Source: Vicinamibacterales bacterium
Lineage (GTDB): Bacteria; Acidobacteriota; Vicinamibacteria; Vicinamibacterales; UBA8438
Reading direction: 5' to 3'
Assembly (NCBI GenBank): GCA_965222265.1
Contig: CBDCTP010000003.1
Span: forward strand, 3,710,841-3,774,840
DNA length: 64,000 nt
Part shown: positions 18,835 to 59,211 of the stretch, piece by piece
Numbering within the stretch: the first letter of the stretch is position 1
How the letters are laid out: each line of letters opens with the position of its first letter
The notes under the pieces: generated by a model
Seen by the model: the letters and a program-made list of their open reading frames with translations, nothing else
Told to the model about the DNA's origin: nothing
The model's database searches: none
Program-made: the position numbers and the translations under genes

Positions 18835-18961
18835 CAGGAGTCTGCGCCGCAGACTCCGCAAGGCGCGCACAGCGCGCCTCGGCGGGAGCGGCGCGGGGCG
18901 CAGGGGTCCCCGCAAGCGGACGCCGGGGGTTCGGAGCACAGCCCCGTCTGATTGAGGCTAG
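18835..18961 (+). repeat. GC-rich multi-hairpin intergenic repeat, copy A (full length, short hairpin-1 loop)
   Basis: CAGGAGTCTGCGCCGCAGACTCCGCAAGGCGCGCACAGCGCGCCTCGGCGGGAGCGGCGCGGGGCGCAGGGGTCCCCGCAAGCGGACGCCGGGGGTTCGGAGCACAGCCCCGTCTGATTGAGGCTAG. It fills the gap between the convergent stops at 18824-18826 (+) and 18958-18960 (-). Confidence 0.9.
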
Positions 18962-20298: not shown

Positions 20299-20437
20299 GG
20301 TAGCAGGACGCCGTCCGGGCCGGCGTCCGCCGCCGCAGAGGCCGTTGCGCACGACGGGCGGCGGCGGAGGATGTGCGGGGCGCCGTGGCGAACCGCGCTA
20401 TGCTGTAGCGGAACGCTCTCATTGTCAGGAGATACCG

Positions 20438-21703
20438 ATGCTGAACGGAGCTGTATCTGGTGGTTCGTTCGCCGCCGCCGCGGTGTCCGCCGCCCTCGTG
20501 GCGGCCTTGAACGTACCGGCCGCGGCGCAGGAGACCCAACAGCGGCAGGGCTGTCGCGGTTGCGAATCGTCGGCCGCGCTGTCCGCCGAGCCGCAGGTCT
20601 TCCACACGCAGGAGCAGAGCTTCCGGGTGGTGCCGATGAAGGGCCTGGTGCGCCCCTGGGCGCTGGCCTTCCTGCCGAACGGCGACCTGCTGATCACCGA
20701 GCACGACGGCCGGCTCCGCATCGTGCGCGACGGCGTGCTCGATCCCGAGCCGCTAGCCGGCCTGCCAGAGGTGTTCACACCCCGCCGCAAGGGGCTGATG
20801 GACGTCGCGCTGCATCCCCGCTTCCTGGAGAACCAGTTCGTCTACTTCACCTACCACAAGGCGAGCCCCAAGCACCGGCTGGCCGCCACGACGGTGCTCG
20901 CCCGCGGCAAGTTCGAGGGGCGGGGCGCACTGGTGGAGGTGCGGGACCTCTTCGTGGCGGACGCCGACTACATGGGCGCGGCGCAGACCTCGCGCATCGT
21001 CTTCGGACCCGACGGCAAGCTGTACATGGTGATCGGCCAGCCGGCGCGTTACGAGGTGGGCTCGGCCGACTACGCGCAGGACCCGTCCAACCACGCCGGC
21101 AAGATGCTGCGCCTCAACGACGATGGCAGCGTTCCCGACGACAATCCGTTCGTCGACGCGCCGGGGCATCGCCCCGAGATCTACGCCCTCGGCATCCGCA
21201 ACGCGAACGGGCTGGCCTGGCACCCGGACACCGGCGAGCTGTGGGAGACCGAGAACGGGCCGCAGGGCGGCGACGAGGTCAACATCATCCGCGCCGGCGC
21301 CAACTACGGCTGGCCGGTCGTCTCGTACGGACGGGCGTACTCGGGCGACCTGACCGGGACGCATTCCGGGCCGCAGCAGACCGCCCGGCAGGCGGAGGGG
21401 ATCGAGGACCCGGTCTTCTTCTGGAGCCCGTCGATCTCGCCCGCCGGGCTGATGTTCTATACCGGCGACCGCTTCCCGAACTGGCAGGGCGACCTGTTCG
21501 TCGGCGGGCTGCGGGGCGCGGAGCTCCAGCGCCTGATCTTCAACGATCGCGGCCTGCTGGTACGCCAGCAGTCGCTGCTTCGCGAGCTCAGGCAGCGCAT
21601 CCGGGAGGTCAAGCAGGGGCCGGACGGCCTGATCTACCTGCTGACCGACGAGCAGGACGGCGCACTGCTGCGGCTCGAGCCCGTCGACCCGGAGAAAGGC
21701 TAG
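20438..21703 (+). CDS. PQQ-dependent sugar dehydrogenase (soluble glucose/sorbosone dehydrogenase family), paralogue 1
   Basis: Start at ATG 20438 (MLNGAVSGG..., with a CAGGAG Shine-Dalgarno). Signal peptide, then LAFLPNGDLLITEHDGRLRIV, GIRNANGLAWHPDTGELWETENGPQGGDEVNII and GANYGWP. Confidence 0.88.
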   Translation: MLNGAVSGGSFAAAAVSAALVAALNVPAAAQETQQRQGCRGCESSAALSAEPQVFHTQEQSFRVVPMKGLVRPWALAFLPNGDLLITEHDGRLRIVRDGVLDPEPLAGLPEVFTPRRKGLMDVALHPRFLENQFVYFTYHKASPKHRLAATTVLARGKFEGRGALVEVRDLFVADADYMGAAQTSRIVFGPDGKLYMVIGQPARYEVGSADYAQDPSNHAGKMLRLNDDGSVPDDNPFVDAPGHRPEIYALGIRNANGLAWHPDTGELWETENGPQGGDEVNIIRAGANYGWPVVSYGRAYSGDLTGTHSGPQQTARQAEGIEDPVFFWSPSISPAGLMFYTGDRFPNWQGDLFVGGLRGAELQRLIFNDRGLLVRQQSLLRELRQRIREVKQGPDGLIYLLTDEQDGALLRLEPVDPEKG

Positions 21704-21707
21704 CTGC

Positions 21708-21846
21708 TGGGAGTCTGCGCCCTAGTCAAGGGTGCAGACTCCGCAAGGCGCGCACAGCGCGCCTCGGCGGGAGCGGCGCGGGGCGAAGGGTCCCCGCAAG
21801 CGGACGCCGGGGGGTTCAGGGCGCAGCCCCGTCTGATTGCAGCTAG
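21708..21846 (+). repeat. GC-rich multi-hairpin intergenic repeat, copy B
   Basis: Same sequence family as copy A, with hairpin-1 loop GCCCTAGTCAAGGGT. It is bounded by TAG 21701-21703 (stop of the + gene) and CTAG 21843-21846 (stop of the - gene). Confidence 0.9.
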
Positions 21847-25900: not shown

Positions 25901-26032
25901 GGAGCAGGCCGCAGCGTCGACTGCCTATAGCCGATGTGTATAGCGGACCGCAGGCGGCAGGTCAAGGATGTTCGGGCGCCGGGGGAACCGCGCTATGCTG
26001 TAGCGGAACCTTCTCATGGTCAGGAGATGCCG

Positions 26033-27316
26033 ATGCTGAACGGAGCCATTCCACGTGAGCTGCTGGCTGTCGCGAGCGTCGCCGTCGCGGTGCTGCTGGG
26101 CGTGCCGGCCGCGGCGCAGGAGTTCGAGCCGGCGATCGACGAAAGGCAGCGGCGGACCGACTGTCAGGGCTGCGAGCCGTCGGCCGCCCTGTCCGACGAG
26201 CCGCGGATCTTCCACACGCAGGAGCAGAGCTTCCGGGCGGTGCCCATGACGGGCCTGGTGCGCCCGTGGGCGCTTGCCTTCCTGCCGAATGGCGACCTGT
26301 TGATCACGGAGCACGGCGGCCGGCTTCGCATCGTGCGCGACGGCGTGCTCGACCCCGAGCCGCTGGCCGGCATCCCGGAGGTGTTCACCAGGCGCCGCAA
26401 GGGGTTGATGGACATCGCACTCCATCCCCGCTTCGCGGAGAACCAGTTCGTCTACTTCACCTACCACCAGCAGAGCTCGGCGCACCGCATGGCGGGCACG
26501 CCGGTACTCGCCCGCGGCAAGTTCGAGGGGCGGGGCGCGCTCGTGGAGGTGCGCGACCTGTTCGTGGCGGAAGCGCCGTACATGGGCGGAGCCCAGACGG
26601 CTCGCATCGCGTTCGGGCCGGACGGCAAGGTGTACATGGTCATCGGTGTCCCGACCCGCAACCCGGTGGGCCAGGCCGAGAGCGCCCAGGACCCGGCCGA
26701 CCACGCCGGCAAGGTGCTGCGGCTGAACGACGACGGAACCGTTCCCGAGGACAACCCGTTCGTCGACACGCCGGGCCACCGGCCGGAGATCTACGCGCTC
26801 GGCATCCGCAACGCGAACGGGCTCGCGTTCCACCCGGAGACCGGCGAGCTGTGGGAGACGGAGAACGGCCCCCAGGGCGGCGACGAGGTGAACATCATCC
26901 GCGCCGGCGCCAACTACGGCTGGCCGGTCGTCTCGTACGGACGGGCGTACTCCGGCGATCTCACCGGCACGTACTCCGGGCCGCAGCAGACCGCCCGGCA
27001 AGCGGAGGGCATCGACGACCCGGTCTTCTTCTGGAGCCCGTCGATCTCGCCGGCGGGCATGCTGTTCTACACGGGCGACCGCTTTCCGAACTGGACCGGA
27101 GACCTCTTCGTCGGCGCGCTGCGCGGGCGGGAGGTGCAGCGCCTGATCTTCAACGATCGCGGCCTGCTGGTGCGCCAGCAGTCGCTGCTGCGCGAGTTCA
27201 GGCAGCGCATTCGGGAGGTGAGGCAGGGGCCGGACGGCCTGATCTACGTGCTGACCGACGAGGAGGACGGCGCGCTGCTCCGGCTCGAGCCGGTCGACGC
27301 GGAGGCGGCGCCGTAG
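26033..27316 (+). CDS. PQQ-dependent sugar dehydrogenase, paralogue 2
   Basis: Start at ATG 26033 (MLNGAIPRELL...). It is highly similar to 20438..21703 along the whole length, including about 80 nt of 5' leader. Confidence 0.88.
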   Translation: MLNGAIPRELLAVASVAVAVLLGVPAAAQEFEPAIDERQRRTDCQGCEPSAALSDEPRIFHTQEQSFRAVPMTGLVRPWALAFLPNGDLLITEHGGRLRIVRDGVLDPEPLAGIPEVFTRRRKGLMDIALHPRFAENQFVYFTYHQQSSAHRMAGTPVLARGKFEGRGALVEVRDLFVAEAPYMGGAQTARIAFGPDGKVYMVIGVPTRNPVGQAESAQDPADHAGKVLRLNDDGTVPEDNPFVDTPGHRPEIYALGIRNANGLAFHPETGELWETENGPQGGDEVNIIRAGANYGWPVVSYGRAYSGDLTGTYSGPQQTARQAEGIDDPVFFWSPSISPAGMLFYTGDRFPNWTGDLFVGALRGREVQRLIFNDRGLLVRQQSLLREFRQRIREVRQGPDGLIYVLTDEEDGALLRLEPVDAEAAP

Positions 27317-27397
27317 CCACCCCGGGGCGTCGCGCCGCGTGAGAGGCTTCGCATGCGGGGCTCGAAGGGGAGCGGCCTGGGCGGCCAGGCACGGAAA

Positions 27398-27427
27398 TTG
27401 ACAGCCCGTTGCACCGTCTGCTAGGGT
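27398..27427 (+). promoter_or_regulatory. Candidate sigma70-type promoter of the trp/aro leader
   Basis: TTGACA (27398-27403), 18-nt spacer, TAGGGT (27422-27427). The leader ATG at 27438 would be at or very near the transcript 5' end. Confidence 0.45.
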
Positions 27428-27437
27428 CAGGCATCAC

Positions 27438-27548
27438 ATGATCTCCGGTCGAGCCTTGCGCTACGCCCGTTTCGGTTACGCCACGGCCAGTTGCGGCTGG
27501 TGGTGGCGCTACGTGTTCAGCGTGCCCGCTGGAGGGGCTGACATGTAG
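27438..27548 (+). CDS. Trp-rich leader peptide (trpL-like), 36 codons
   Basis: Below the track size cut-off. ATG 27438 ... TAG 27546-27548 encodes MISGRALRYARFGYATASCGWWWRYVFSVPAGGADM, with TGG TGG TGG at 27498-27506. It is followed by an intrinsic terminator and lies upstream of the Trp biosynthesis genes. Confidence 0.7.
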   Translation: MISGRALRYARFGYATASCGWWWRYVFSVPAGGADM

Positions 27549-27585
27549 GCCGGCAGGTCGACATTCAGGACGAGACGGATTTTCG

Positions 27586-27622
27586 AGCCTCTTCAGCCGC
27601 AACGGTTGAAGAGGCTTTTTTT
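27586..27622 (+). terminator. Intrinsic terminator (attenuator) upstream of aroDE
   Basis: AGCCTCTTCA (27586-27595) pairs with TGAAGAGGCT (27607-27616). The stem is extended by G-U plus CCG/CGG, with loop CAA, and is followed by a T-run to 27622. It lies 19 nt before GTG 27641. The alternative pairing CTGGAGGGGCT (27529-27539) with AGCCTCTTCAG (27586-27596) would form an antiterminator. Confidence 0.8.
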
Positions 27623-27640
27623 GTCGGAAACGGTGAGCGG

Positions 27641-29098
27641 GTGCGAGCCAGGCTGTGCGCGACGGTAACGGGCCGAACGATGGCGGAGCTGCGGGCGCGC
27701 CGCGACGGGACGGACGGGGCGGACCTGGTCGAGCTGCGCCTCGATCAGGTGCGCGACCCGGATGTCGCCGCCGCGCTCGCGGGCCGGCGCACCCCCGTGG
27801 TGGTGACCTGCCGGCCCGCCTGGGAGGGAGGCGGCTTCCGCGGCTCCGAGGAGGAGCGCCGCGGCCTGCTCGAGCGGGCGCTGGAGCTCGGCGCCGACTA
27901 CGTCGATCTGGAATGGCGGGCCGGACTGGACGACCTGATTCGGGCCCGGCGCGGGCGGAACGTCGTCCTGTCGACGCATGATTTCGAGCGGATGCCCGGC
28001 GACCTCGCCGACCGCTACCGGGCCCTGCGGGCGACCGGCGCCGAGGTCGTGAAGATCGCCGCCCGGGCGCGCAGCCTGACCGAGACCCTGGCCCTGCTGG
28101 AGGTCGGCGCCGGCGAGCCGGGCCGCGTGCTGGTCGCGATGGGGCCGGCGGGCACGGCGTCCCGCGTGCTGCCCGACCGCTTCGGGTCGGCCTGGACCTA
28201 CGCCGGCGACGGCGTCGCCCCGGGTCAGATCGCCCTGCGCCGCATGCTCGACGAGTTCCGGGTCCGCTCGGTCTCGGACTCGACACGGCTGTACGGCGTG
28301 CTCGGTGCGCCGGTAGGGCACTCGCTGTCGCCCGCGATGCACAACGCCGCCTTCGCCGCCGCCGGGTGCGATGCCATCTACCTGCCCCTGGAGGCGGCGA
28401 GCGCGGACGACTTCTGGACGTTCGCGCGGGCGCTGAGGCTGCGCGGCGCGAGCGTGACGGCGCCCTTCAAGGAGGCCGTTCTGCCGGGCCTGGCCGCGAC
28501 GGACGCGCTGGTGCGTCAGGTCGGCGCCGCCAACACCCTGCGGATCGGCGAGCGCGGGTGGGAGGGTATCAACACGGACGTGCCGGGCTTTCTGGAGCCG
28601 CTGGCCGGCCGCATGGCGCTGCAGGGCAGCCGTGCGACCGTGCTCGGCGCCGGCGGCGCGGCGCGCGGCGTGGCGGTGGCGCTCGACGGCGCGGGGGCGC
28701 AGATCACGGTCTGCGCGCGCAACGCCGAGCGCGCCGCCGGCGTGGCGCGGCTGGTCGGCGGCAGCGCCCGCGGGCTGCCGCCGGCGGCCGGCTCGTGGGA
28801 CCTGCTCGTCAACACGACGCCGGTCGGCACGGCCCCCGGCGTCGGGGACAGCCCGCTGCCCGGGGGACCGTTCGACGGCCGCCTGGTGTACGACCTGGTC
28901 TACAACCCGGCCACGACCCGGTTGCTGGCGGACGCGTCGGCCGCCGGATGCGGCATCCTCGGCGGGCTGCCGATGCTGGTGGCCCAGGCCGTCAGGCAGT
29001 TCGAATGGTGGACGGGCAAGGCCGCGCCGCGCGACGCGTTCGCGGCGGCGGCGCGGCGGCGGCTGGCCGCAGCGGAAGACCAGGAGTCTGCGCCGTAG
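27641..29098 (+). CDS. aroDE: Bifunctional 3-dehydroquinate dehydratase (type I) / shikimate 5-dehydrogenase
   Basis: 485 aa. The N-terminal half is AroD-like (LVELRLDQV..., VVLSTHDF..., VKIAA). The C-terminal half is AroE-like (LYGVLGAPVGHSLSPAMHNAAF, VTAPFKEAV, GAANTL, INTDVPGF, VLGAGGAARGVAVAL, LVNTTPVG). The last codons, QESAP*, lie inside repeat copy C. Confidence 0.9.
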   Translation: MRARLCATVTGRTMAELRARRDGTDGADLVELRLDQVRDPDVAAALAGRRTPVVVTCRPAWEGGGFRGSEEERRGLLERALELGADYVDLEWRAGLDDLIRARRGRNVVLSTHDFERMPGDLADRYRALRATGAEVVKIAARARSLTETLALLEVGAGEPGRVLVAMGPAGTASRVLPDRFGSAWTYAGDGVAPGQIALRRMLDEFRVRSVSDSTRLYGVLGAPVGHSLSPAMHNAAFAAAGCDAIYLPLEAASADDFWTFARALRLRGASVTAPFKEAVLPGLAATDALVRQVGAANTLRIGERGWEGINTDVPGFLEPLAGRMALQGSRATVLGAGGAARGVAVALDGAGAQITVCARNAERAAGVARLVGGSARGLPPAAGSWDLLVNTTPVGTAPGVGDSPLPGGPFDGRLVYDLVYNPATTRLLADASAAGCGILGGLPMLVAQAVRQFEWWTGKAAPRDAFAAAARRRLAAAEDQESAP

Positions 29099-29214
29099 AA
29101 CCGGTGCAGACTCCGCAAGGCGCGCACGGCGCGCCTCGGCGGGAGCGGCGCGGGGCGCAGGGGTCCCCGCAAGTGGACGCCGGGGGTTCGGGGCAAAGCC
29201 CCGTCTGAGTAAAG
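29081..29214 (+). repeat. GC-rich multi-hairpin repeat, copy C (inside the operon, between aroDE and trpE)
   Basis: Same family. The aroDE stop TAG (29096-29098) lies in the hairpin-1 loop GCCGTAGAACCGGT. The element's right end abuts trpE ATG 29215. Confidence 0.9.
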
Positions 29215-30729
<1,515 letters not shown>

Positions 30730-30734
30730 GCGTC

Positions 30735-31301
<567 letters not shown>

Positions 31302-32324
31302 ATGTTTGCCGGCCTCATCGAGAAGCTGCAGCGGCGCCGCGATCTGACGGAGCAGGAGGCGGCCGCGGCGATGACCGAGATCATGGCCGGGCGGGCGGTT
31401 CCGGCGCAGATCGCCGGATTGCTCATCGGCCTGTCGATGAAGGGCGAGCGCCCGGACGAGATCGTCGGTCTGGCCAGGACCATGCGCGCGGAGTCGGTCG
31501 CTCTGACCCGTTCCTTCAGCGGCGCGTTCGACACCTGCGGGACCGGCGGCGACGGGCTGGGCACGTTCAACGTGTCGTCGCTGGCCGCGCTGGTGCTGGC
31601 TGCCTGCGGCGTGCGCGTGGCCAAGCACGGCAACCGCTCGGTGTCGAGCCGCTGCGGCAGCGCCGACCTGTTCGCGGCGTTGGGCGTCGACGTGTCGGCT
31701 CCGCCGGCGGTGGTCGAGCGGTGTTTGGCCGATGTCGGCATCGCCTTCTTCTTCGCGCCCACGTTCCACCCGTCGATGCGGCATGCAGGCCCGACGCGGC
31801 GCGAGCTGGGAGTGCGCACGACGTTCAACCTGCTGGGTCCACTCACGAATCCGGCAGGCGCGACGCGGCAGGTGATCGGTGTGCCGAGCCCGGAGTACAC
31901 GGACCTGATCGCGCATGCCCTCGTGCGGCTCGGATCCGAGCACGCGTGGGTGGTGCATGGCGCCGAGGGGCTCGACGAAATCTCCGTCGGCGGGCACACC
32001 AAGGTCTCGGAATGCCGGGACGGTGCGGTGCATACCTTCTACCTGCACCCGGCCGATTTCGGGGTGGAGCCCGCGTCGCTCGAGCGCGTGCGCGTTGCGG
32101 GCCTCGAGGAGAGCGTCGCGATGGCCCGCAGCGTGCTGGACGGCGAGCCCGGCGCCGCGCGCGACTTCGTGGTGGTCAACGCGGCGGCCGGACTGCTCGT
32201 CGCGGGACGCGCTTCGTCGCTCCGTGAGGGGACGCGGATGGCGGCCGCAGCCCTCGACGACGGATCGGTCGCAGCCAGGCTGCGGGAGCTGGCCGACGCG
32301 TCGACGGCGGTGGCGGAGCCTTGA
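31302..32324 (+). CDS. trpD: Anthranilate phosphoribosyltransferase
   Basis: 340 aa. Contains FDTCGTGGDGLGTFNVS, KHGNRSVSSRCGSADL and NLLGPLTNPA. Its ATG directly follows the trpG TAG. Confidence 0.95.
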   Translation: MFAGLIEKLQRRRDLTEQEAAAAMTEIMAGRAVPAQIAGLLIGLSMKGERPDEIVGLARTMRAESVALTRSFSGAFDTCGTGGDGLGTFNVSSLAALVLAACGVRVAKHGNRSVSSRCGSADLFAALGVDVSAPPAVVERCLADVGIAFFFAPTFHPSMRHAGPTRRELGVRTTFNLLGPLTNPAGATRQVIGVPSPEYTDLIAHALVRLGSEHAWVVHGAEGLDEISVGGHTKVSECRDGAVHTFYLHPADFGVEPASLERVRVAGLEESVAMARSVLDGEPGAARDFVVVNAAAGLLVAGRASSLREGTRMAAAALDDGSVAARLRELADASTAVAEP

Positions 32325-33166
32325 GCATGGTCGAGAATCTCGCCGGGCGGAGCCAGGCGGCGCGAGCTCCGGATCTGCTCGCGGCGATCGTGGCCGCCAC
32401 CCGGCGCGAGGTGCTGCTGCGCGAGGAGCAGGTGAGCAGGGCGGCCCTGGAGCGGGCGGCGGCCCGCCGTGCGCCGCGGGCCGACGCGTTTCGCGCCGGC
32501 CTGGCCGCGGGCGGCCGCTTCAACGTCATCGCAGAATGCAAGCGGCGGTCGCCGTCGCGGGGAGTCCTGCGCGCGGACTACCGGCCGGAGCGGATCGCGC
32601 GGGAGTACGCGGGCGCCGGCGCCGCGGCCGTTTCGGTGCTGACGGAGCCGACGTTCTTCGACGGCAAGCTGAGCGATCTGGCGGCCGTCCGCGCCGCCAC
32701 CGAGTTGCCGCTGCTGCGCAAGGACTTCATCGTGTCGCGCTATCAGCTGCTCGAGGCGCGCGTGGCGGGGGCCGATGCCGTGCTGCTGATAGTGGCCGCC
32801 CTCGACGAGTCCCGGTTGCGCCTGCTGCATGGCGCGGCCGCGGAGTACGAGCTGGCCGTCCTCGTCGAGGTCCACGACGCCGCCGAGCTGTCGCGCGCGC
32901 TCGACGCCGGCGCGCGGATCGTCGGCGTGAACAATCGCGATCTGCGGACGCTGGAGGTCGACATCGAGGCATCGCATGCGCTGATCGAGGAGATCCCGGC
33001 AGCGACGGTTTCCGTGGCCGAGAGCGGGCTGCGCAGCGCCCTGGATCTGGTCGAGCTGCGCCGGGCCGGGTACGACGCGTTCCTGATCGGCGAGTCGTTG
33101 ATGACCCGCGAGAGCCCCGGCGAGGCGCTGGCGGCGCTGCTGCGCGCCGCAACCGCGGCGGCATGA
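32321..33166 (+). CDS. trpC: Indole-3-glycerol phosphate synthase
   Basis: Track start TTG 32321 overlaps the trpD stop. ATG 32327 is an alternative start. Contains NVIAECKRRSPSRG, LTEPTFFDG, LRKDFIV and VGVNNRDLRTLEVD. Confidence 0.93.
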   Translation: MSMVENLAGRSQAARAPDLLAAIVAATRREVLLREEQVSRAALERAAARRAPRADAFRAGLAAGGRFNVIAECKRRSPSRGVLRADYRPERIAREYAGAGAAAVSVLTEPTFFDGKLSDLAAVRAATELPLLRKDFIVSRYQLLEARVAGADAVLLIVAALDESRLRLLHGAAAEYELAVLVEVHDAAELSRALDAGARIVGVNNRDLRTLEVDIEASHALIEEIPAATVSVAESGLRSALDLVELRRAGYDAFLIGESLMTRESPGEALAALLRAATAAA

Positions 33167-33828
33167 ACATGGTGAAGGTCAAGGTCTGCGGCATCACACG
33201 GCTGTCGGACGCGCTACTGGCCAGCGATCTGGGGGCGTCGGCGATCGGCTTCGTCTTCTGGGAGCGCAGTCCGCGGGCGGTCGATCCGCGGTCGGCGGCG
33301 CGGATAGCGGCCCGGGTGCCGGTCGACGTGGCGCCGATCGGCGTGTTCGTCGACGCGTCGCCGGCGTGGGTCCGGGACGTCGCGCAGCACGTCGGTCTGG
33401 CGGCGGTCCAGCTGCATGGCGACGAGCAGGTCGAGCGTTGGACCGATCTGCCGGCGCGGGTCATCAAGGCGGTGGGCGTGCGCTCGACGGCCGATGTGGA
33501 GGCGGCGCTGCGGCTGCCGGCGCACGTGACCGTCCTGCTCGACGGGCACGACCCTGTCCGGCGCGGCGGCACGGGACGGACGCTGGACTGGACGCTCGCC
33601 GCCGAGGTGGCCCGCGGGCGGCGGACATTTCTGGCCGGTGGGCTGCGGCCCGAGAACGTGTCGGCGGCGATCGCGGCGGTCGGCCCGTACGGGATCGACG
33701 CGTCGTCGGGACTCGAGGCGTCGCCGGGCGTCAAGGCGCCGGACAGGCTGCGGGCCTTTTTCGCCGCGGTCCGGGCCGCGGCGGCGGCCGGAGGGATGGT
33801 GGACGAAACCGATGGGCAATGCTGCTGA
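33163..33828 (+). CDS. trpF: Phosphoribosylanthranilate isomerase
   Basis: ATG 33163 overlaps the trpC stop (ATGA). [17 protein letters not shown]..., AVQLHGDE and ...[11 protein letters not shown]... The longer track ORF 31915..33828 is a shadow extension. Confidence 0.9.
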
Positions 33829-35044
33829 CACCCCACTGCCCGTGTTCGGGCAGAGAGACCCGGACGAGCGCGGCTACTTCGGGCCGTACGGCGGCCGCTT
33901 CGTGCCGGAGACGCTCGTCGAGCCCGTCGAGGCGCTCGAGCGCGCCTACCTGGCGGCCCGGCGCGATCCCGCGTTCGGCCGGGAGCTGTCCGCGCTGCTG
34001 ACACGCTATGCGGGCCGCCCGACGCCGCTCTGGGAGGCTACGCGGCTGGCGGCCGATGCGGGTGGGGCACGCCTCTTTCTGAAGCGCGAGGACCTCGCGC
34101 ACACCGGCGCCCACAAGATCAACAACGCCCTCGGCCAGGCGCTGCTCGCCGGCCGCATGGGCAAGCAGCGCGTGGTGGCCGAGACCGGCGCCGGCCAGCA
34201 CGGCGTGGCGACGGCGACCGCGTGTGCGCTCCTGGGACTCCGCTGCGAGGTCTACATGGGCACGGAAGACATGCGGCGGCAGGCGCTCAACGTCGTCCGC
34301 ATGCACCTGCTGGGCGCGACGGTCACCGGTGTCGAGGGGGGCAGCCGCACGCTCAAGGACGCCATCAACGAGGCGATGCGCGACTGGGTCACGAACGTCG
34401 GCGACACCTACTACCTCCTGGGATCGGTCCTCGGCCCGCACCCGTATCCGCTCATGGTCAGGGAGTTCCAATCGGTGATCGGACGGGAGGCGCGCGCGCA
34501 GTTCGCGGCGCAGGTGGGCCGGGCTCCCGATGTCGTCGTCGCCTGCGTCGGCGGAGGCAGCAACGCGCTCGGCATATTCGACGGCTTCGTCGCCGACGAA
34601 GCCGTCCGGCTCGTCGGCGTGGAAGCCGGGGGAGAGGGGCTGGTGCCGGGACGCCACGCCGCCCGCTTCGCCACCGGGACCGCGGGCGTGCTGCAGGGCA
34701 CCCGCAGCTACGTGCTCCAGGACGTTCACGGCAACATCGATCCGACTCACTCGGTCTCGGCGGGGCTGGACTATGCCGCGGTCGGTCCCGAGCACGCCTG
34801 GCTCCGCGACCTGGGACGGGCGGAGTACACGCACGTCTCCGACGCCGAGGCGCTGGCTGCGTTCGAGCGTCTCGGCCGCCTGGAAGGGCTTCTCCCTGCG
34901 CTCGAGTCGGCCCATGCGGTGGCGTACGCGTGCCGGTTGGCGGCGGAGCTCGGCAAGGACCGGGCGATCCTGATCAACCTGTCGGGGCGGGGCGACAAGG
35001 ACGTCGAAACGATCAGCGGCCGCAAGGCCGGTCAGGAAGCGTAG
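33812..35044 (+). CDS. trpB: Tryptophan synthase beta chain
   Basis: ATG 33812 ([35 protein letters not shown]). Contains [28 protein letters not shown] and GGGSNALG. Overlaps the trpF end by 17 nt. Confidence 0.95.
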
Positions 35045-35848
35045 ATGTCGCGCATCGACGAGACGTTCACACGGCTGCGGTCGGATGGCCGGACAGGTCT
35101 GGTGACCTTCGTCACCGCCGGCGATCCGGACATGGAGCGCTCGGCGCTCGTGCTCGAGACGCTGGACCGGGCGGGGGCGGACGTGCTGGAGGTCGGTATT
35201 CCGTTCTCCGATCCGCTGGCGGACGGCCCGGCAATCCAGCGGTCGTCGGAGCGGGCGCTCGCGGCCGGCACGACGCTGGCGTCGAGCCTGGACCTGGTAG
35301 GGCGCGTCCGGCCCCGGATCGACGGCGCGGTGGTCGTCTTCAGCTACGTTAATCCGGTGCTGGCGATGGGACTCGATCGCTTCGTCCGGCGGGCGGCCGA
35401 CGCCGGCGTCGACGGGGTGCTGGTGCTCGACCTGCCGATCGAGGAGGCCGACGATCTGCGCGACGCGGCGGTCAGCGTGGCGATCGACCCCATCTTCCTG
35501 CTGAGCCCGACGACGACGGAGGCGCGTATTCGGCGCGCCGCAACACTGGGCCGGGGCTTTCTGTACGGCATCTCGCGATTGGGCGTCACGGGCGAGCGCG
35601 ATACGATTGCAACGGGCGCCCGCGAGCTGGTCGGGCGCATCCGGGCAATCACGGAGCTGCCTGTCGCGCTCGGTTTCGGCATCTCGCGTCCCGAGCACGT
35701 GGCCCAGGTCGGCGCCTGGGCGGACGCCGCGGTGGTCGGGAGCGGGCTGGTGAACACGGTGGCGCGGGCATCGCGCGGCGGCGACCTGGCAGGCGAGGTG
35801 GACCGCTACATACGTTGGTTGAAGGGCGGGAGCTCGACAAGCCGATGA
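35045..35848 (+). CDS. trpA: Tryptophan synthase alpha chain
   Basis: 267 aa. Contains LVTFVTAGDP, LEVGIPFSDPLADGPAIQ and GFGISRPEHV. Its ATG directly follows the trpB TAG. Confidence 0.95.
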   Translation: MSRIDETFTRLRSDGRTGLVTFVTAGDPDMERSALVLETLDRAGADVLEVGIPFSDPLADGPAIQRSSERALAAGTTLASSLDLVGRVRPRIDGAVVVFSYVNPVLAMGLDRFVRRAADAGVDGVLVLDLPIEEADDLRDAAVSVAIDPIFLLSPTTTEARIRRAATLGRGFLYGISRLGVTGERDTIATGARELVGRIRAITELPVALGFGISRPEHVAQVGAWADAAVVGSGLVNTVARASRGGDLAGEVDRYIRWLKGGSSTSR

Positions 35849-36201
35849 CCGACAAGCCGAAGGATCCGGCGGACGACCAGGACAGCGCGACGGCGGACGC
35901 GGCGGGGCAGATGCGCCAGTTTCGGGAGCGCATCGACCGGCTGGACGCCGAGATCGTCCGGTTGTTGAACGCTCGCGCGGAATGCGCCCTGGCGCTCGGC
36001 CGGCTCAAGGAGGCGGTCGGTCTGGACACCTACCAGCCGGACCGGGAGCTTGCGGTGCTCGCGCACGCGCGGGCGACGAACGACGGGCCGCTCGATGCCG
36101 GCGCCATCACGCGCCTGTTCGAGCGCATCATCGACGAGAACCGCCGGCTCGAGCGGCTGGCGGAGTGCAAGGACACGCCCTCGCAGGAGTCTGCGCCGTA
36201 G
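35845..36201 (+). CDS. Chorismate mutase (AroQ class)
   Basis: Start ATG 35845 overlaps the trpA stop (ATGA); the track offers 35815. FRERIDRLDAEIVRLLNARAECALALGRLK and RELAVLAHAR...ITRLFERIIDENRRLE match the CM_2 helices. The C-terminal QESAP* is encoded by repeat copy D. Confidence 0.85.
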   Translation: MTDKPKDPADDQDSATADAAGQMRQFRERIDRLDAEIVRLLNARAECALALGRLKEAVGLDTYQPDRELAVLAHARATNDGPLDAGAITRLFERIIDENRRLERLAECKDTPSQESAP

Positions 36202-36318
36202 AAGGTGCAGACTCCGCAAGGCGCGCACAGCGCGCCTCGGCGGGAGCGGCGCGGGGCGCAGGGGTCCGCGCAAGCGGACGCCGGGGGTGCGGGGCGCAGC
36301 CCCGTTTGATTGAAGCTA
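36184..36318 (+). repeat. GC-rich multi-hairpin repeat, copy D (inside the operon, between chorismate mutase and DAHP synthase)
   Basis: Same family. The stop TAG 36199-36201 lies in the hairpin-1 loop GCCGTAGAAGGT. Hairpin 3 is perfect here (GTCCGC GCAA GCGGAC). Confidence 0.9.
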
Positions 36319-36335
36319 TGGAGGTTGCAGAACCT

Positions 36336-37385
36336 ATGGTTGTGGTAATGGAGGAGCGGGCGTCGGAGGATCAGATTCAACACATCATCGCGACGCTGGT
36401 CGACAAGGGATTCGACGTCCACCGCTCGACCGGCGCGTTGCGGACCGTGCTCGGCGCCGTCGGCGGCAATCGATCGTTCGACGAGCGGTTGATCGAGGTG
36501 ATGGACGGCGTGCACGAGGTGCTCCGGATCACGGAGCCCTACAAGCTGGCGAGCCGGACGTTCAAGCCCGAGCGGACCGTCGTGTCGATCGGCGACGTGC
36601 GGATCGGAGGCGACGAGGTGCTGGTCATCGCCGGCCCGTGCTCGGCGGAATCCGAGGAGCAGGTGGAGGCGGCCGCCGCGGTGCTGGCCAAGGCGGGCGC
36701 GAAGATGCTCCGCGGCGGCGCGTTCAAGCCGCGCAGCTCGCCCTACAGCTTCCAGGGGTTGGGCGAGGAGGGACTCAAGCTGCTCCGCGGGGCGGCCGAC
36801 CGGCACAACCTCAAGCTGGTGTCCGAGGTGATGGACATCAGCCAGATCGAGCTCGTTGCCCGCTATGCCGACATGCTGCAGGTCGGCGCCCGCAACATGC
36901 AGAACTTCACGCTCCTGCGCGAGCTCGGCCGGACCAGGACGCCGGTGCTGCTCAAGCGGGGCATCTCCGCGACGATCGAGGAGTGGCTCCTGTCGGCCGA
37001 GTACGTGCTCTCCGGCGGCAACACCGACGTGGTGCTGTGCGAGCGGGGCATTCGCACGTTCGAGCGCTACACCAGGAACACCCTCGATATCTCCGCGGTC
37101 CCCGTGATCCACAAGCTGAGCCACCTGCCGATCATCGTGGACCCGAGCCACGGCATCGGGCTGCGGGACAAGGTCGCGCCGATGGCCCGCGCGGCCGTGG
37201 CGGCGGGCGCGGACGGCCTGATCATCGAGGTCCATCCCGATCCGGACCATGCCCTCAGCGATGGAGCGCAGTCGCTGTTCCCGGTCCAGTTCGAGCACCT
37301 GATGGCCGAGCTCCGGATCATCGCGCCGGCCATCGGCCGCGGCATCTGCGTCGAGCCCGTACCACGGCGCAGGTGGGGCACCTGA
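36336..37385 (+). CDS. aroF: 3-deoxy-7-phosphoheptulonate (DAHP) synthase, type I-beta with N-terminal ferredoxin-like regulatory domain
   Basis: Within track ORF 35982..37385. Start ATG 36336 (MVVVMEERASEDQIQHIIATL..., with GGAGG 11 nt upstream); ATG 36318 is an alternative. Contains IAGPCSAESEEQ, LRGGAFKPRSSPYSFQGLG, KRG and IVDPSHG. Confidence 0.9.
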   Translation: MVVVMEERASEDQIQHIIATLVDKGFDVHRSTGALRTVLGAVGGNRSFDERLIEVMDGVHEVLRITEPYKLASRTFKPERTVVSIGDVRIGGDEVLVIAGPCSAESEEQVEAAAAVLAKAGAKMLRGGAFKPRSSPYSFQGLGEEGLKLLRGAADRHNLKLVSEVMDISQIELVARYADMLQVGARNMQNFTLLRELGRTRTPVLLKRGISATIEEWLLSAEYVLSGGNTDVVLCERGIRTFERYTRNTLDISAVPVIHKLSHLPIIVDPSHGIGLRDKVAPMARAAVAAGADGLIIEVHPDPDHALSDGAQSLFPVQFEHLMAELRIIAPAIGRGICVEPVPRRRWGT

Positions 37386-37393
37386 TCGCCGGC

Positions 37394-38317
37394 ATGGCAG
37401 ACACGAGTCGCCGCCTGCCCGTCATCCAGCCGGGCAAGTCCGCGACGGAGCCCCCGATCTTCGGCAAGGTCGCGATCATCGGGCTGGGCCTCGTCGGCGG
37501 GTCGATTGCGCTTGCCGCCCGCGAGCGGTGGCCGGGCGGCCTGGTGATCGGGGTCGATCGCAAGGACGTGCTCGAGCTGGCCATGGTCCGCCACGCCATC
37601 GACGTGGCGGCCGACGACCCGGTGGTGATCGCGGAGGCGGAGCTGGTCATCCTCGCCGCGCCCGTACGGCAGAACGTCGAGCTGCTGGCGGCCCTGGACG
37701 ACCATGTTCCCGGATCGGCCATCGTGACGGACGTCGGGAGCACGAAACGCGAAATCGTCGCGCGAGCACAGTCGCTCCCGCGGCGCTTCACGTTCGTGGG
37801 CGGGCATCCGCTCGGCGGGGCCCCGCGCGGCGGACTCGGCAACGCGCGCCCCGACCTGTTCGTCGACCGGCCCTGGCTGTTCACGCCGACCAGCGATGCG
37901 GACGGCCCGGCACTGGAACGCCTGCAGCAGTTCGTGGCGGGGCTCGGCGCCCGGCCGCACGTGATGTCTCCGGCCCGGCACGATCGCCTGCTGGCATTTC
38001 TGAGTCATCTCCCCCAGCTCACCGCCAGCGCGCTGATGCACGTGGTCGGGACCGCCGCGGGAGCGGACGGCCTGGCCCTGACCGGGCGCGGACTCGTCGA
38101 TACCACCCGCCTGGCCTCCAGCCCCGTGAGCGTCTGGCGCGACATCTGCGCCAGCAACGCCGACGAGCTCGGCCTGGCGCTCGACACGTTGATCAGAGAG
38201 CTGCGGCAACTGCGCGGGCAGCTCGAGACCGGCGACGCCGTCGAGCGCGTGTTCGAATCGGCGGCGGCCTGGCGCGCCGTGCTGACCGAGCGCGGCGGAC
38301 GGCGGGCCGGGTCCTGA
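37394..38317 (+). CDS. tyrA: Prephenate dehydrogenase
   Basis: Within track ORF 36638..38317. Start ATG 37394 (MADTSRRLPVIQ...). Contains the Rossmann motif VAIIGLGLVGGSIALA, plus TDVGSTK, FVGGHPLGG and HDRLLAFLSHLPQL. Confidence 0.88.
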   Translation: MADTSRRLPVIQPGKSATEPPIFGKVAIIGLGLVGGSIALAARERWPGGLVIGVDRKDVLELAMVRHAIDVAADDPVVIAEAELVILAAPVRQNVELLAALDDHVPGSAIVTDVGSTKREIVARAQSLPRRFTFVGGHPLGGAPRGGLGNARPDLFVDRPWLFTPTSDADGPALERLQQFVAGLGARPHVMSPARHDRLLAFLSHLPQLTASALMHVVGTAAGADGLALTGRGLVDTTRLASSPVSVWRDICASNADELGLALDTLIRELRQLRGQLETGDAVERVFESAAAWRAVLTERGGRRAGS

Positions 38318-38340: not shown

Positions 38341-38775
38341 TTGCATGACAGCGTCGTGCCGGCAGCCAGCCTGACGATCCGCCGCGCCGCCGTGGACGTC
38401 ATCCGCGGGCACGCCGCCGACGACCTGCCGAACGAGTGCTGCGGGCTGCTGATCGGCCGCGCGGGGTCGATCGAGCGCGCGGCCCGGGCGCGCAACCTCC
38501 GTTCGGCGCCTGACCGGTACCTCGTCGACCCTGCCGATCACTGCGCGGCGCTGCGGTCGGCGCGCGCCAGCGGGCTCCACGTCGTGGGCGTCTACCACTC
38601 GCACCCCGCCGGCTCGCTCCGGCCGTCGGCCGTCGACCGGCGGGAGGCGTCCTACCGGGAGTTCGTCTACCTGATCGTGTCGCCACGGGCGGCAACCCAC
38701 GGGGCGGCCGACTTGGCAGCGTACTGCTTGACGTCCGACGACTTCCGGGAAATCGCGCTGCGGATTGTCCGCTGA
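38341..38775 (+). CDS. Mov34/MPN/JAB-domain metalloprotease (JAMM motif)
   Basis: 144 aa. Contains NECCGLLIG and VGVYHSHPAGSLRPSAVD (the HxHx7Sx2D JAMM motif). Non-ATG (TTG) start per the track. Confidence 0.8.
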   Translation: MHDSVVPAASLTIRRAAVDVIRGHAADDLPNECCGLLIGRAGSIERAARARNLRSAPDRYLVDPADHCAALRSARASGLHVVGVYHSHPAGSLRPSAVDRREASYREFVYLIVSPRAATHGAADLAAYCLTSDDFREIALRIVR

Positions 38776-39307: not shown

Positions 39308-39444
39308 CTACCTTCAATCAAACGGGGCTACGCCTCGAACCCCCGGCGTCCGCTTGCGGGGACCCCTGCGCCCCGCGCCGCTCCCGCCGAGGCGCGCCGT
39401 GCGCGCCGTGAGGAGCCTCACTATTCTACGGTGCAGACTCCTAG
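39308..39444 (-). repeat. GC-rich multi-hairpin repeat, copy E (inverted orientation, most diverged)
   Basis: The reverse complement matches the family consensus. Hairpin 1 is degenerate (GGAGTCTGC...GAGGCTCC). It lies in the divergent spacer between 38834..39301 (-) and pepA (+). Confidence 0.85.
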
Positions 39445-42960: not shown

Positions 42961-43050
42961 AGGATAGCCGCGGCGATCCCGGGGCCGCGTGAGATCTATC
43001 GACCGACGACGACCCGAGCCTTACCCGCCCGCAAGAAATAGCCGGCCGCC

Positions 43051-43150
43051 GCGAGGCGCGCACAGCGCGCCTCGGCGGGAGCGGCGCGGGGCGCAGGGGT
43101 CCCCGCAAGCGGACGCCGGGGGTTCGGGGCATAGCCCCGTCTGATTGATG
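43051..43150 (+). repeat. GC-rich repeat, copy F (5'-truncated: lacks hairpin 1)
   Basis: GCGAGGCGCGCACAGCGCGCCTCGGCGGGAGCGGCGCGGGGCGCAGGGGTCCCCGCAAGCGGACGCCGGGGGTTCGGGGCATAGCCCCGTCTGATTGATG. It abuts copy G directly. Confidence 0.88.
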
Positions 43151-43251
43151 CCGCGCACGGCGCGCCTCGGCGGAGCGGCGCGGGGCGCAGGGGTCCCCGC
43201 AAGCGGACGCCGGGGGTTCGGGGCGCAGCCCCGTCTGATTGAAGCCACTAG
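43151..43251 (+). repeat. GC-rich repeat, copy G (5'-truncated), tandem to F
   Basis: CCGCGCACGGCGCGCCTCGGCGGAGCGGCGCGGGGCGCAGGGGTCCCCGCAAGCGGACGCCGGGGGTTCGGGGCGCAGCCCCGTCTGATTGAAGCCACTAG. The terminal CTAG contains the ftsK stop (43248-43250). Confidence 0.88.
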
Positions 43252-57694: not shown

Positions 57695-59077
57695 ATGCTG
57701 TCCCCCGGCCTCATCGAGGCGCTCGTGCAGATCGTCGGACCGGGCCACGTCCGTCAGGACGACGAGAGCTGTCGCGAGTACGGCGCAGACGCACTGGGCA
57801 GAGGCCGTCCGGCCGACGCGGTGGTCTTTCCAGGCTCGACCGCCGACGTGGCGGCGGTCGCACGGCTCTGCGACCGCGAACGGATACCGCTGACGCCGCG
57901 CGGCGCCGGAACCGGGTACACCGGTGGCGCGGTACCGTCCGCAGGCGGCGTAGTGCTGGCCATGGAGCGGCTGCACCGGATCCTCGAGATCGACGCGGGG
58001 AGCCTGCTGGCGGTCGTCGAGCCGAACGTCGTCACCGCGCGCCTGCAGCAGGCAGTCGAGGAGCTCGGCCTGTTCTATCCGCCGGACCCCGCCAGCCTGC
58101 AGCGGTCGGTGATCGGCGGGAACGTGGCCGAATGCGCCGGCGGCCCCCGGGCGTTCAAATACGGGACGACGAAGCGCTACGTGCTGGGGCTGGAGGCCGT
58201 GCTGCCGACCGGCGAGATCATCGAGACCGGCGGCCGCTCCGTCAAGAACGTGGTCGGCTACGATCTGACGCAGTTGCTGGTGGGATCCGAGGGAACACTG
58301 GCGATCATCACGAAGATCATCCTGCGGCTCATCCCGAAGCCGCCGGCGCGCGCGACGATCCGCGCCGGGTTCCGGAGCGTGGAAGACGCGGTGGGCGCGG
58401 TGGGCCGCCTGCTGGCCGAGCGGGTCGTTCCGGCCGCGCTCGAGTTGATCGACAGCGACTGTCTCGATGCGCTGGCCGCGGCGGCGGGCCGCCGCATGGC
58501 GGATCCGGGAACCGGCGCGATGCTGCTGATGGAGGTCGACGGGATGCCGGAAGCCGTCGCCGCCGAGGCCGAGCGCGTGAGGCTCGCCTGCGAGTCGCAG
58601 GGGGCCACCCGCGTTCGACAGGCCGGCAACGCGGCCGAGCGAGCCGAGCTCTGGCGGCTGCGCCGCGAGCTGTCGTTCGCCTTGCGGGCGCAGGCGCCGC
58701 TCAAGATCAACCACGACGTCGTGGTGCCCAAGGCAAGGATTCCGGAGCTGTTCGCGGCCGTCGATGCCCTGCGGCGGTCTCTTCGGCTCCGCATGTCGAG
58801 CTTCGGGCACGTCGGCGACGGCAACATCCACGTCAACATCCTGCTGGATCCGCAGGACCAGGCCGCGCTGGCGCGGGCGCGCGAGGCCGAACGCCGCCTG
58901 TTCGAGCAGGTCGTGCGCCTCGAGGGCTCCATCAGCGGCGAGCACGGCATCGGGCTCTCCAAGGCGGCCTACCTGCGGCTGGAGCTCTCCGACGACGTGA
59001 TTGCCCTGATGCGGCGGCTGAAGGCGGCCTTCGATCCGCATGGCATTCTCAATCCCGGCAAGATCTTTCCGCCCTAG
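57695..59077 (+). CDS. FAD-linked oxidase (GlcD / D-lactate dehydrogenase-like)
   Basis: 460 aa. FAD_binding_4 pattern (VVFPGSTADVAAVARLC...PRGAGTGYTGGAVP) and the C-terminal SGEHGIG motif. The stop TAG 59075-59077 lies in the CTAG end of repeat H. Confidence 0.88.
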   Translation: MLSPGLIEALVQIVGPGHVRQDDESCREYGADALGRGRPADAVVFPGSTADVAAVARLCDRERIPLTPRGAGTGYTGGAVPSAGGVVLAMERLHRILEIDAGSLLAVVEPNVVTARLQQAVEELGLFYPPDPASLQRSVIGGNVAECAGGPRAFKYGTTKRYVLGLEAVLPTGEIIETGGRSVKNVVGYDLTQLLVGSEGTLAIITKIILRLIPKPPARATIRAGFRSVEDAVGAVGRLLAERVVPAALELIDSDCLDALAAAAGRRMADPGTGAMLLMEVDGMPEAVAAEAERVRLACESQGATRVRQAGNAAERAELWRLRRELSFALRAQAPLKINHDVVVPKARIPELFAAVDALRRSLRLRMSSFGHVGDGNIHVNILLDPQDQAALARAREAERRLFEQVVRLEGSISGEHGIGLSKAAYLRLELSDDVIALMRRLKAAFDPHGILNPGKIFPP

Positions 59078-59211
59078 CTTCAATCAGACGGGGCTGCGCC
59101 CCGAACCCCCGGCGTCCGCTTGCGGGGACCCCTGCGCCCCGCGCCGCTCCCGCCGAGGCGCGCTGTGCGCGCCTTGCGGAGTCTGCACCGTTCTACGGCG
59201 CAGACTCCTAG
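59074..59211 (-). repeat. GC-rich multi-hairpin repeat, copy H (inverted orientation, best-formed hairpins, CTAG at both ends)
   Basis: The reverse complement reads CTAGGAGTCTGCGCCGTAGAACGGTGCAGACTCCGCAAGGCGCGCACAGCGCGCCTCGGCGGGAGCGGCGCGGGGCGCAGGGGTCCCCGCAAGCGGACGCCGGGGGTTCGGGGCGCAGCCCCGTCTGATTGAAGCTAG. Confidence 0.9.

Follow-up and report, generated by a model that had tools for sequence, protein, structure and literature searches.

Which signal decides whether the genes for aromatic amino acid synthesis are transcribed in a soil member of the Vicinamibacterales (Acidobacteriota)? The question was raised by a spacer in a 64,000-nt stretch of its DNA (NCBI GenBank assembly GCA_965222265.1, contig CBDCTP010000003.1, positions 3,710,841 to 3,774,840 of the forward strand), called the window below. 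The spacer covers 324 nt from the end of the upstream gene at 27316 to the GTG start codon of aroDE at 27641, where a large operon for tryptophan (Trp) and related compounds begins. An original prediction, made from the letters alone, had placed a ribosome-mediated Trp attenuator here. With regard to the sequence comparisons and predicted folds described below, the element is very probably a classical ribosome-mediated (leader peptide) transcription attenuator. Its parts are as follows.

27316, + strand: end of the upstream PQQ-dehydrogenase-like gene.
27398..27427, + strand: promoter, with the −35 hexamer TTGACA at 27398-27403, an extended −10 TG at 27419-27420 and TAGGGT at 27422-27427; 18-nt spacer.
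27438..27548, + strand: leader peptide open reading frame (ORF), ATG at 27438, 36 codons plus the stop codon TAG at 27546-27548, encoding MISGRALRYARFGYATASCGWWWRYVFSVPAGGADM.
27498..27518, + strand: putative regulatory codons, TGG TGG TGG at 27498-27506, then CGC TAC GTG TTC (R Y V F).
27509..27548, + strand: local hairpin after the Trp codons, in which 27509-27527 pairs with 27534-27548 (−20.6 kcal/mol).
27528..27539, + strand: antiterminator 5' strand (segment 2), GCTGGAGGGGCT, inside the ORF and ending two codons before its stop.
27585..27622, + strand: intrinsic terminator, 5' arm 27585-27599 (segment 3), loop 27600-27602, 3' arm 27603-27617 (segment 4).

The coordinates predicted for the TTGACA/TAGGGT promoter candidate and for the 36-codon ORF with its three TGG codons were correct, and the hairpin described as a textbook terminator with a T run to 27622 was confirmed as a 15-bp stem with a loop of 3 nt (−25.0 kcal/mol), the T7 run ending at 27622, 19 nt before aroDE. 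An alternative helix had been given as 11 positions, 9 Watson-Crick and 2 G-U. Here, the pairing itself stood and its length had to be corrected, as 27528-27539 pairs with 27586-27597 over 12 bp (10 Watson-Crick and 2 G-U); the whole antiterminator structure from 27528 to 27597 folds at −30.5 kcal/mol. The two helices compete for the same strand and are mutually exclusive, forming a complementary triple of GAAGAGGC / GCCUCUUC / GAAGAGGC. Within the window, which has a G+C content of 70.5%, only three sites on both strands combine a hairpin with a T run, and the leader terminator is by far the strongest of them; runs of at least six T occur twice on the + strand, once at this terminator, and never on the − strand. 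The 192-nt leader as a whole folds with a z score of −5.1 relative to shuffled sequences.

The AroDE fusion protein has close relatives in Acidobacteria, and a genome scan assigned the window to the Vicinamibacterales, with L001 and L050 as the best matches (92% protein identity). Altogether, 80 aroDE loci were compared, 66 of them of the Vicinamibacterales type (L001-L063, L069, L073 and L076; AroDE identity 47-92%). Two, L022 and L054, came without upstream DNA, which left 64 related loci with a gene G+C content of 49-78%; counts over 64 sequences, in turn, refer to the window plus 63 related loci. The whole anatomy of the spacer, comprising promoter, Trp-codon ORF, antiterminator and terminator, was found in 63 of the 64 related loci, and in the remaining one, L060, whose contig has very low coverage, the leader ORF is accompanied by no more than a weak hairpin. 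All 64 related loci have an ORF with one to four Trp codons whose end lies just upstream of the terminator. The loci carrying the element include L059, from an uncultured Luteitalea genome, and the element is also present in the loci added later (L081-L084). The original prediction had proposed examining the spacers of relatives for a conserved Trp run and stop-codon position and for compensatory changes; the first two are kept in 63 related Vicinamibacterales loci, and the last were seen in both helices. Of the 64 relatives with upstream DNA, none keeps the operon but lacks the Trp run or the terminator.

The 14 outgroup aroDE loci (34-44% identity), labeled as Blastocatellia, Acidobacteriaceae, Acidiferrales, Desulfobulbales relatives and Thermodesulfobacteria, have no strong terminator within 230 nt upstream and no such element; aroDE adjoins trpE in three of them. 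In the outgroup aroDE-trpE locus L066 (40% identity, uncultured bacterium; 1685-1903), which has no terminator, an ORF ending in ...SLIRSLWWWPSAPR has a stop codon that overlaps the aroDE start. This ORF may have arisen by chance, or it may be a different type of Trp-sensing leader that acts through translational coupling.

Both helices were scored on a MAFFT alignment (A2) of the 64 sequences. A strong terminator (−15 to −32 kcal/mol) lies 7-138 nt before aroDE in 63 of the 64 related loci. In the alignment, 91.8% of its cells are paired and 10 of the 15 pairs have changed on both sides, compared to 34-61% paired cells in controls slid along the alignment. RNAalifold recovered the terminator independently and found no other consensus helix in the 64 sequences. 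The antiterminator behaves similarly: in 63 relatives, a purine-rich segment at the 3' end of the ORF pairs with the 5' arm of the terminator at −10.7 to −28 kcal/mol, 85.7% of the cells are paired (slid controls 43-57%), 7 of the 12 pairs have changed on both sides, and the nine central pairs are paired in nearly 100% of the sequences. For each helix, the covariation score and the number of doubly changed cells exceeded those of all 500 shuffles. The median energies were −18.4 kcal/mol for the antiterminator duplex and −24.3 kcal/mol for the terminator.

Since the sequences are related, shuffles might be beaten without any structure, a problem from which the slid controls and the following rule are free. 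Three positions of the shared strand are usually U and sometimes C. Opposite a C, the antiterminator strand carries G in 6 of 6, 8 of 9 and 7 of 7 sequences, and the terminator arm carries G in 7 of 7, 8 of 9 and 5 of 7; opposite a U, the antiterminator strand carries A in roughly 45-75% of the sequences, with differences between the three positions. The frame in which the antiterminator motif is read is the same in 59 of the 64 loci; the five exceptions, which include L041, L042 and L044, have the motif in a different frame, across the stop codon or past it. As the motif is kept even when it is out of frame or past the stop, the constraint acts on the RNA. As a side observation, 27528-27539 and the terminator 3' arm at 27606-27614 (GGAGGGGC, GAAGAGGC) resemble Shine-Dalgarno sequences, and the shared strand 27586-27597 (GCCUCUUC) resembles an anti-Shine-Dalgarno sequence.

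The ORF upstream of these helices carries Trp codons at a density far above background. Of the 64 sequences, 34 have three Trp codons in the cluster, 20 have two, 7 have four and 3 have one. At least two Trp codons within a span of eight occur in 61 of the 64 leaders and in 8.5% of the controls (2420 random 200-nt segments from the same loci); for at least three, the figures are 41 of 64 and 0.7%. TGG triplets that are not adjacent remain in frame (WYW, WRWYW, WHYW; examples are TGGTATTGGTATTGG, TGGCGGTGGTATTGG and TGGCACTACTGG), the counts by frame being 173, 20 and 41, and no stop interrupts the TGG frame between 60 nt upstream and its own stop codon in 61 of the 64 loci, compared to 42 and 35 for the other two frames.

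These data also bear on the simplest alternative, namely an ordinary terminator or insulator that separates two transcription units, with a fortuitous Trp-rich ORF in front of it. A same-strand gene does end 270 nt upstream in the window, at 27316, as such an arrangement would have it. However, that gene and the hairpin are separated by a conserved promoter, and in L081-L084 the upstream neighbor is on the other strand, so that the hairpin is not that gene's terminator; a role as the terminator of the upstream gene was ruled out on these two grounds. Moreover, 63 loci keep the Trp cluster, the placement of the stop codon and the antiterminator, far above control rates. The comparative data thus already contradict an insulator, which we regard as extremely improbable.

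With regard to the peptide, the leaders could not be aligned except for the Trp cluster and a C-terminal stretch (PAGGA, TEGA, TGEA) that encodes the antiterminator, and outside the TGG run and the two helices, neither sequence nor structure of the RNA is conserved. Functions in trans have been documented for leader peptides and for small RNAs derived from attenuators (PMC6614838, PMC7298713), such as rnTrpL and peTrpL of Sinorhizobium, and the terminated RNA of approximately 190 nt would be stable and structured. The main product could accordingly be this short transcript or its peptide acting in trans, with control in cis only secondary. A peptide without conservation beyond the Trp/tyrosine cluster and the antiterminator-encoding stretch, and an RNA without conservation beyond the helices, argue otherwise, and such a function would supplement attenuation in cis rather than replace it; as the main role, it is very unlikely.

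For an attenuator operating in cis, the position of the ribosome relative to segment 2 is decisive, and the geometry had been claimed to fit the classical scheme. The median distances agree: 23 nt from the first and 13 nt from the last Trp codon to the antiterminator, 9 nt (range −10 to 26) from the end of the antiterminator to the stop codon, and 29 nt from the stop codon to the terminator 5' arm. The same holds for constrained folds of the window RNA, with ribosome footprint sizes assumed from E. coli. When a ribosome was masked at any of the three Trp codons, the antiterminator was the minimum-energy fold of the RNA through segment 3, and when it was masked at the stop codon, the RNA folded into the terminator. 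The free full-length RNA folded into the terminator plus the local hairpin at 27509-27548.

This local hairpin sequesters the stop codon together with the 3' half of the antiterminator strand, and may be a 1:2 element, the anti-antiterminator or pause hairpin of classical attenuators, in this genome only. Its lower stem is broken already in L001, the relative with 92% identity. In folds of the individual loci, the antiterminator strand pairs upstream in 25 of the 64 and downstream in 18. A further candidate, the pairing of the Trp run with a CCACC-like flanking segment as anti-antiterminator, appeared attractive in about ten loci and was rejected, its duplex energies being no better than those of shuffled sequences (median z of about 0). 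As no conserved 1:2 hairpin was found, it seems to be the ribosome itself that keeps the antiterminator strand hidden in this family.

The genes behind the switch were assigned by NCBIfam and Pfam matches, and the predicted number of 12 gated enzymatic functions was correct.

27641..38317, + strand: the operon.
27641-29098, + strand: aroDE, GTG start.
29215-30729, + strand: trpE.
30735-31301, + strand: trpG.
31302-32324, + strand: trpD.
32321-33166, + strand: trpC.
About 33163-33828, + strand: trpF.
About 33827-35044, + strand: trpB.
35045-35848, + strand: trpA.
Within 35815-36201, + strand: chorismate mutase, type II.
About 36330-37385, + strand: DAHP synthase with a ferredoxin-like regulatory domain.
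About 37430-38317, + strand: prephenate dehydrogenase.
38341-38775, + strand: JAB-domain gene, the next after the operon.

The order aroDE-trpE-trpG-trpD was found in every attenuator locus with downstream DNA, and the full gene order is identical in L081-L084 (AroDE identity 60-72%). As a prephenate dehydratase is missing from the operon, its products are Trp and tyrosine (Tyr), not phenylalanine (Phe). The leader codons show a matching bias. Tyr makes up 15% of the residues adjoining the Trp run and 1.5% of those elsewhere in the same leaders, a tenfold enrichment, while Phe is not enriched (4.2% vs. 4.3%). Typical leader cores are YWWWY, WYWYW and WWYY, with WWWRYVF in the window. The Tyr codons of the leader family are often the rare TAT, which accounts for 55% of those adjoining the Trp run compared to 26% of the Tyr codons in aroDE at these loci. 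Given this enrichment and an operon with the Tyr but not the Phe branch, a multivalent attenuator that senses Tyr beside Trp is a reasonable reading. Alternatively, there may be a reason at the RNA level for UAU or UAC beside UGG.

The promoter in the window was not flagged by a consensus promoter scan, because TAGGGT matches TATAAT at only three of six positions. Despite the negative scan, the call was kept because the promoter is conserved: TTGAC(N)-N17/18-TAnnnT occurs in at least 50 of the 64 related loci, nearly always with TGn before the −10, and the others carry near variants. The family form is TTGACA-N17/18-TGnTAnnnT, with the start of the ORF a few bases downstream. In the window, the ATG lies 10 nt past the −10 hexamer; in about 36 of the 50 promoter-matching loci, the first in-frame start codon lies 6-19 nt past it, most commonly 9-12 nt. 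If transcription starts approximately 7 nt after the −10, as assumed from E. coli, and if the start codon is the one suggested by the promoter position, the leader would have a 5' untranslated region of 0-5 nt. Initiation would thus be leaderless or nearly so, and a region this short has no space for a Shine-Dalgarno site.

Another conserved stretch, TTATACGG...GCTTGC.GGTCAAGGAGAA, was seen approximately 60-120 nt upstream of the leader start in ten loci (L023, L028, L003, L035, L041, L053, L062, L063, L081 and L084), and is not present in the window. It lies upstream of or overlaps the leader promoter, beside the start of a divergent neighboring gene. In some loci it seems to provide the −35 (TTGCCT or TTGCAG), and in others it precedes a separate TTGACA.

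Taken as a leader-peptide attenuator, the element would work as follows. Transcription would start at a constitutive-looking sigma-70-type promoter, with the leader start codon within the first few bases of the transcript. With charged tRNA-Trp plentiful, the translating ribosome would pass the Trp codons and reach the stop codon at 27546, thereby covering the purine-rich segment 27528-27539; 27586-27597 would then be free to pair with 27603-27617, the terminator would form, and RNA polymerase would halt at the T run, 19 nt before aroDE. With charged tRNA-Trp scarce, the ribosome would stall at 27498-27506, and scarce tRNA-Tyr, read at the neighboring Tyr codon, may stall it as well. The stalled ribosome would leave 27528-27539 exposed to pair with 27586-27597 as soon as the latter is made, pre-empting the terminator, and the polymerase would proceed into aroDE-trpEGDCFBA-chorismate mutase-DAHP synthase-prephenate dehydrogenase.

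Several points weigh against this scheme. The leader ORF has no Shine-Dalgarno site, and its start codon as well as the transcription start were placed from the promoter position alone. Across the 64 loci, no conserved 1:2 hairpin was found, and the ribosome-free nascent RNA of the window up to segment 3 prefers the antiterminator at equilibrium. A few leaders contain a single Trp codon, namely those of L002, L004 and L037 among the aligned loci, and of L082. Furthermore, the attenuator-like leader of S. coelicolor ilvB failed a mutational test for classical attenuation (PMC1262725).

The missing Shine-Dalgarno site, the missing 1:2 hairpin and a translation of the ORF that is predicted only would all suit a switch that is real but set by an RNA-binding protein (TRAP-like), an uncharged tRNA (T-box-like) or a small ligand, with the Trp codons serving as an RNA motif. 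However, a search of 26500-29500 against Rfam 15 returned no match at E-values up to 10, including the covariance model of Trp_leader (RF00513), and no Rfam family reached its gathering score in 14 related loci. A T-box was rejected, as neither an Rfam T-box match nor a conserved structure upstream of the antiterminator was found. TRAP leaders contain 9-11 (G/U)AG triplets spaced by 2-3 nt that overlap the antiterminator; no such array was seen when the leader was read by eye, without a pattern search or a search for a TRAP gene, and this candidate was set aside as well. The lack of conservation outside the TGG run and the helices leaves no candidate aptamer or binding platform. In addition, the TGG triplets hold codon spacing, in a frame that is open from the promoter to a stop at the antiterminator. 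A switch set without the ribosome is therefore quite unlikely, and the leader-peptide attenuator is retained as the preferred reading.

Among known systems, such an attenuator resembles E. coli trpL (RF00513) in design. Both have a short leader ORF in which Trp codons stand in tandem, and both can form either an antiterminator or a terminator helix but not the two together. In each, the stop codon is so positioned that a ribosome terminating there covers the antiterminator strand, and the terminator, with its U tract, lies immediately ahead of the first structural gene. In contrast to trpL, with which neither sequence nor covariance-model similarity was found, the Vicinamibacterales leader is longer (36 codons in the window and, as an estimate, roughly 30-45 in the family, vs. 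14), has no Shine-Dalgarno site, starts a few bases after the promoter and shows no conserved 1:2 hairpin. Moreover, Tyr codons flank its Trp run, and the operon adds genes of the common pathway and the tyrosine branch.

Leader peptides in which the codons of more than one amino acid are mixed, each a product of the operon or related to it, are found in front of thr and ilvGMEDA in E. coli. The mixture of Trp and Tyr codons before an operon that makes both would be of the same kind, the sensing of Tyr being suggested by codon enrichment and operon content; we know of no described attenuator that combines Trp and Tyr. In the aro-trp supraoperon of Bacillus subtilis, the trp genes also lie inside a larger aromatic operon, and a leader chooses between terminator and antiterminator, there under the control of the 11-subunit TRAP on (G/U)AG repeats. 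The Vicinamibacterales leader differs in its Trp-codon ORF, in the absence of (G/U)AG repeats on inspection by eye (no pattern search) and in the gene order downstream.

Among the actinobacterial trp attenuators of Corynebacterium and Streptomyces, predicted or shown, a conserved complementary triple is common to antiterminator and terminator (PMC1262725). The Vicinamibacterales element shares with them this triple, a genome of high G+C content, double or triple UGG repeats and G+C-rich terminators with a U tract (PMC1262725). However, it belongs to another phylum, is unrelated in sequence and gates aroDE first, in an operon that runs on to chorismate mutase, DAHP synthase and prephenate dehydrogenase. 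Finally, leaderless polycysteine short ORFs of mycobacteria are amino acid-responsive attenuators of the operon downstream (bioRxiv 10.1101/834739). There, too, the regulatory ORF starts at or beside the 5' end of the transcript. In contrast to the Vicinamibacterales element with its canonical terminator/antiterminator pair, the mycobacterial ORFs sense cysteine, and an earlier comparative study had found no terminator hairpins upstream of mycobacterial cys operons (PMC1262725).

In a 2010 survey, predicted attenuators of Acidobacteriota almost all lacked an assigned function (PMC2965389). Our full-text literature searches, which covered few subscription journals and may thus have missed a prior account, yielded no description of a trp leader peptide or attenuator from Acidobacteria. 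As far as found, the element is a new, order-wide RNA and leader-peptide family across the Vicinamibacterales with none described before in the phylum, and with three modest peculiarities: the apparently leaderless ORF, the Tyr codons and the missing conserved 1:2 hairpin. We advance more tentatively, as a somewhat less than probable proposition, the combined claim that this is the first leader-peptide attenuator family of Acidobacteriota, in which a leaderless ORF reads the supply of both Trp and Tyr and a single switch sets the common aromatic pathway, the Trp branch and the Tyr branch without a 1:2 hairpin.

Since attenuation of this type is textbook knowledge, the element adds more to its breadth than to its principles. 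Little is known of gene regulation in Acidobacteriota, which are abundant in soil, and the element offers a clear, easily tested and order-wide example of classical attenuation among them. If the start is indeed leaderless, as the promoter position suggests, leader-peptide attenuation can operate on a transcript with essentially no 5' untranslated region. The element also suggests that one switch may coordinate the synthesis of both Trp and Tyr with entry into the shikimate pathway. On the practical side, the alignment is ready for a new RNA family, and the annotation of hundreds of Vicinamibacteria genomes, in which the leader ORF is uncalled, could be improved.

Beyond the leader, a G+C-rich dispersed repeat of approximately 112 nt with several hairpins, REP- or MITE-like and beginning with GCAGACTCCGCAAGGCGCGCAC, occurs in at least eight copies within the 64 kb, all of them in or at the edges of intergenic spacers. 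Copies on the + strand lie at 18849-18960, 21734-21845, 29106-29217, 36207-36318, 43042-43153 and 43136-43247, and those on the − strand at about 39308-39418 and 59074-59184. Two copies lie within the operon, one in the spacer between aroDE and trpE and the other in that between the chorismate mutase and DAHP synthase genes. These structured spacer sequences had been considered as a second, aromatic-specific regulator, which was rejected as they are copies of the dispersed repeat. Both operon copies also have the last codons of the upstream gene (CAGGAGTCTGCGCCGTAG) in common, and the one at 36207 ends in a hairpin followed by TTTGATTG (36282-36304, −16.2 kcal/mol) that might be a weak internal terminator. 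Upstream of the spacer, two paralogous PQQ-dehydrogenase-like genes lie approximately 5.6 kb apart (20387-20836 and 25982-26446), and their DNA is 76-92% identical at the 5' ends, upstream region included.

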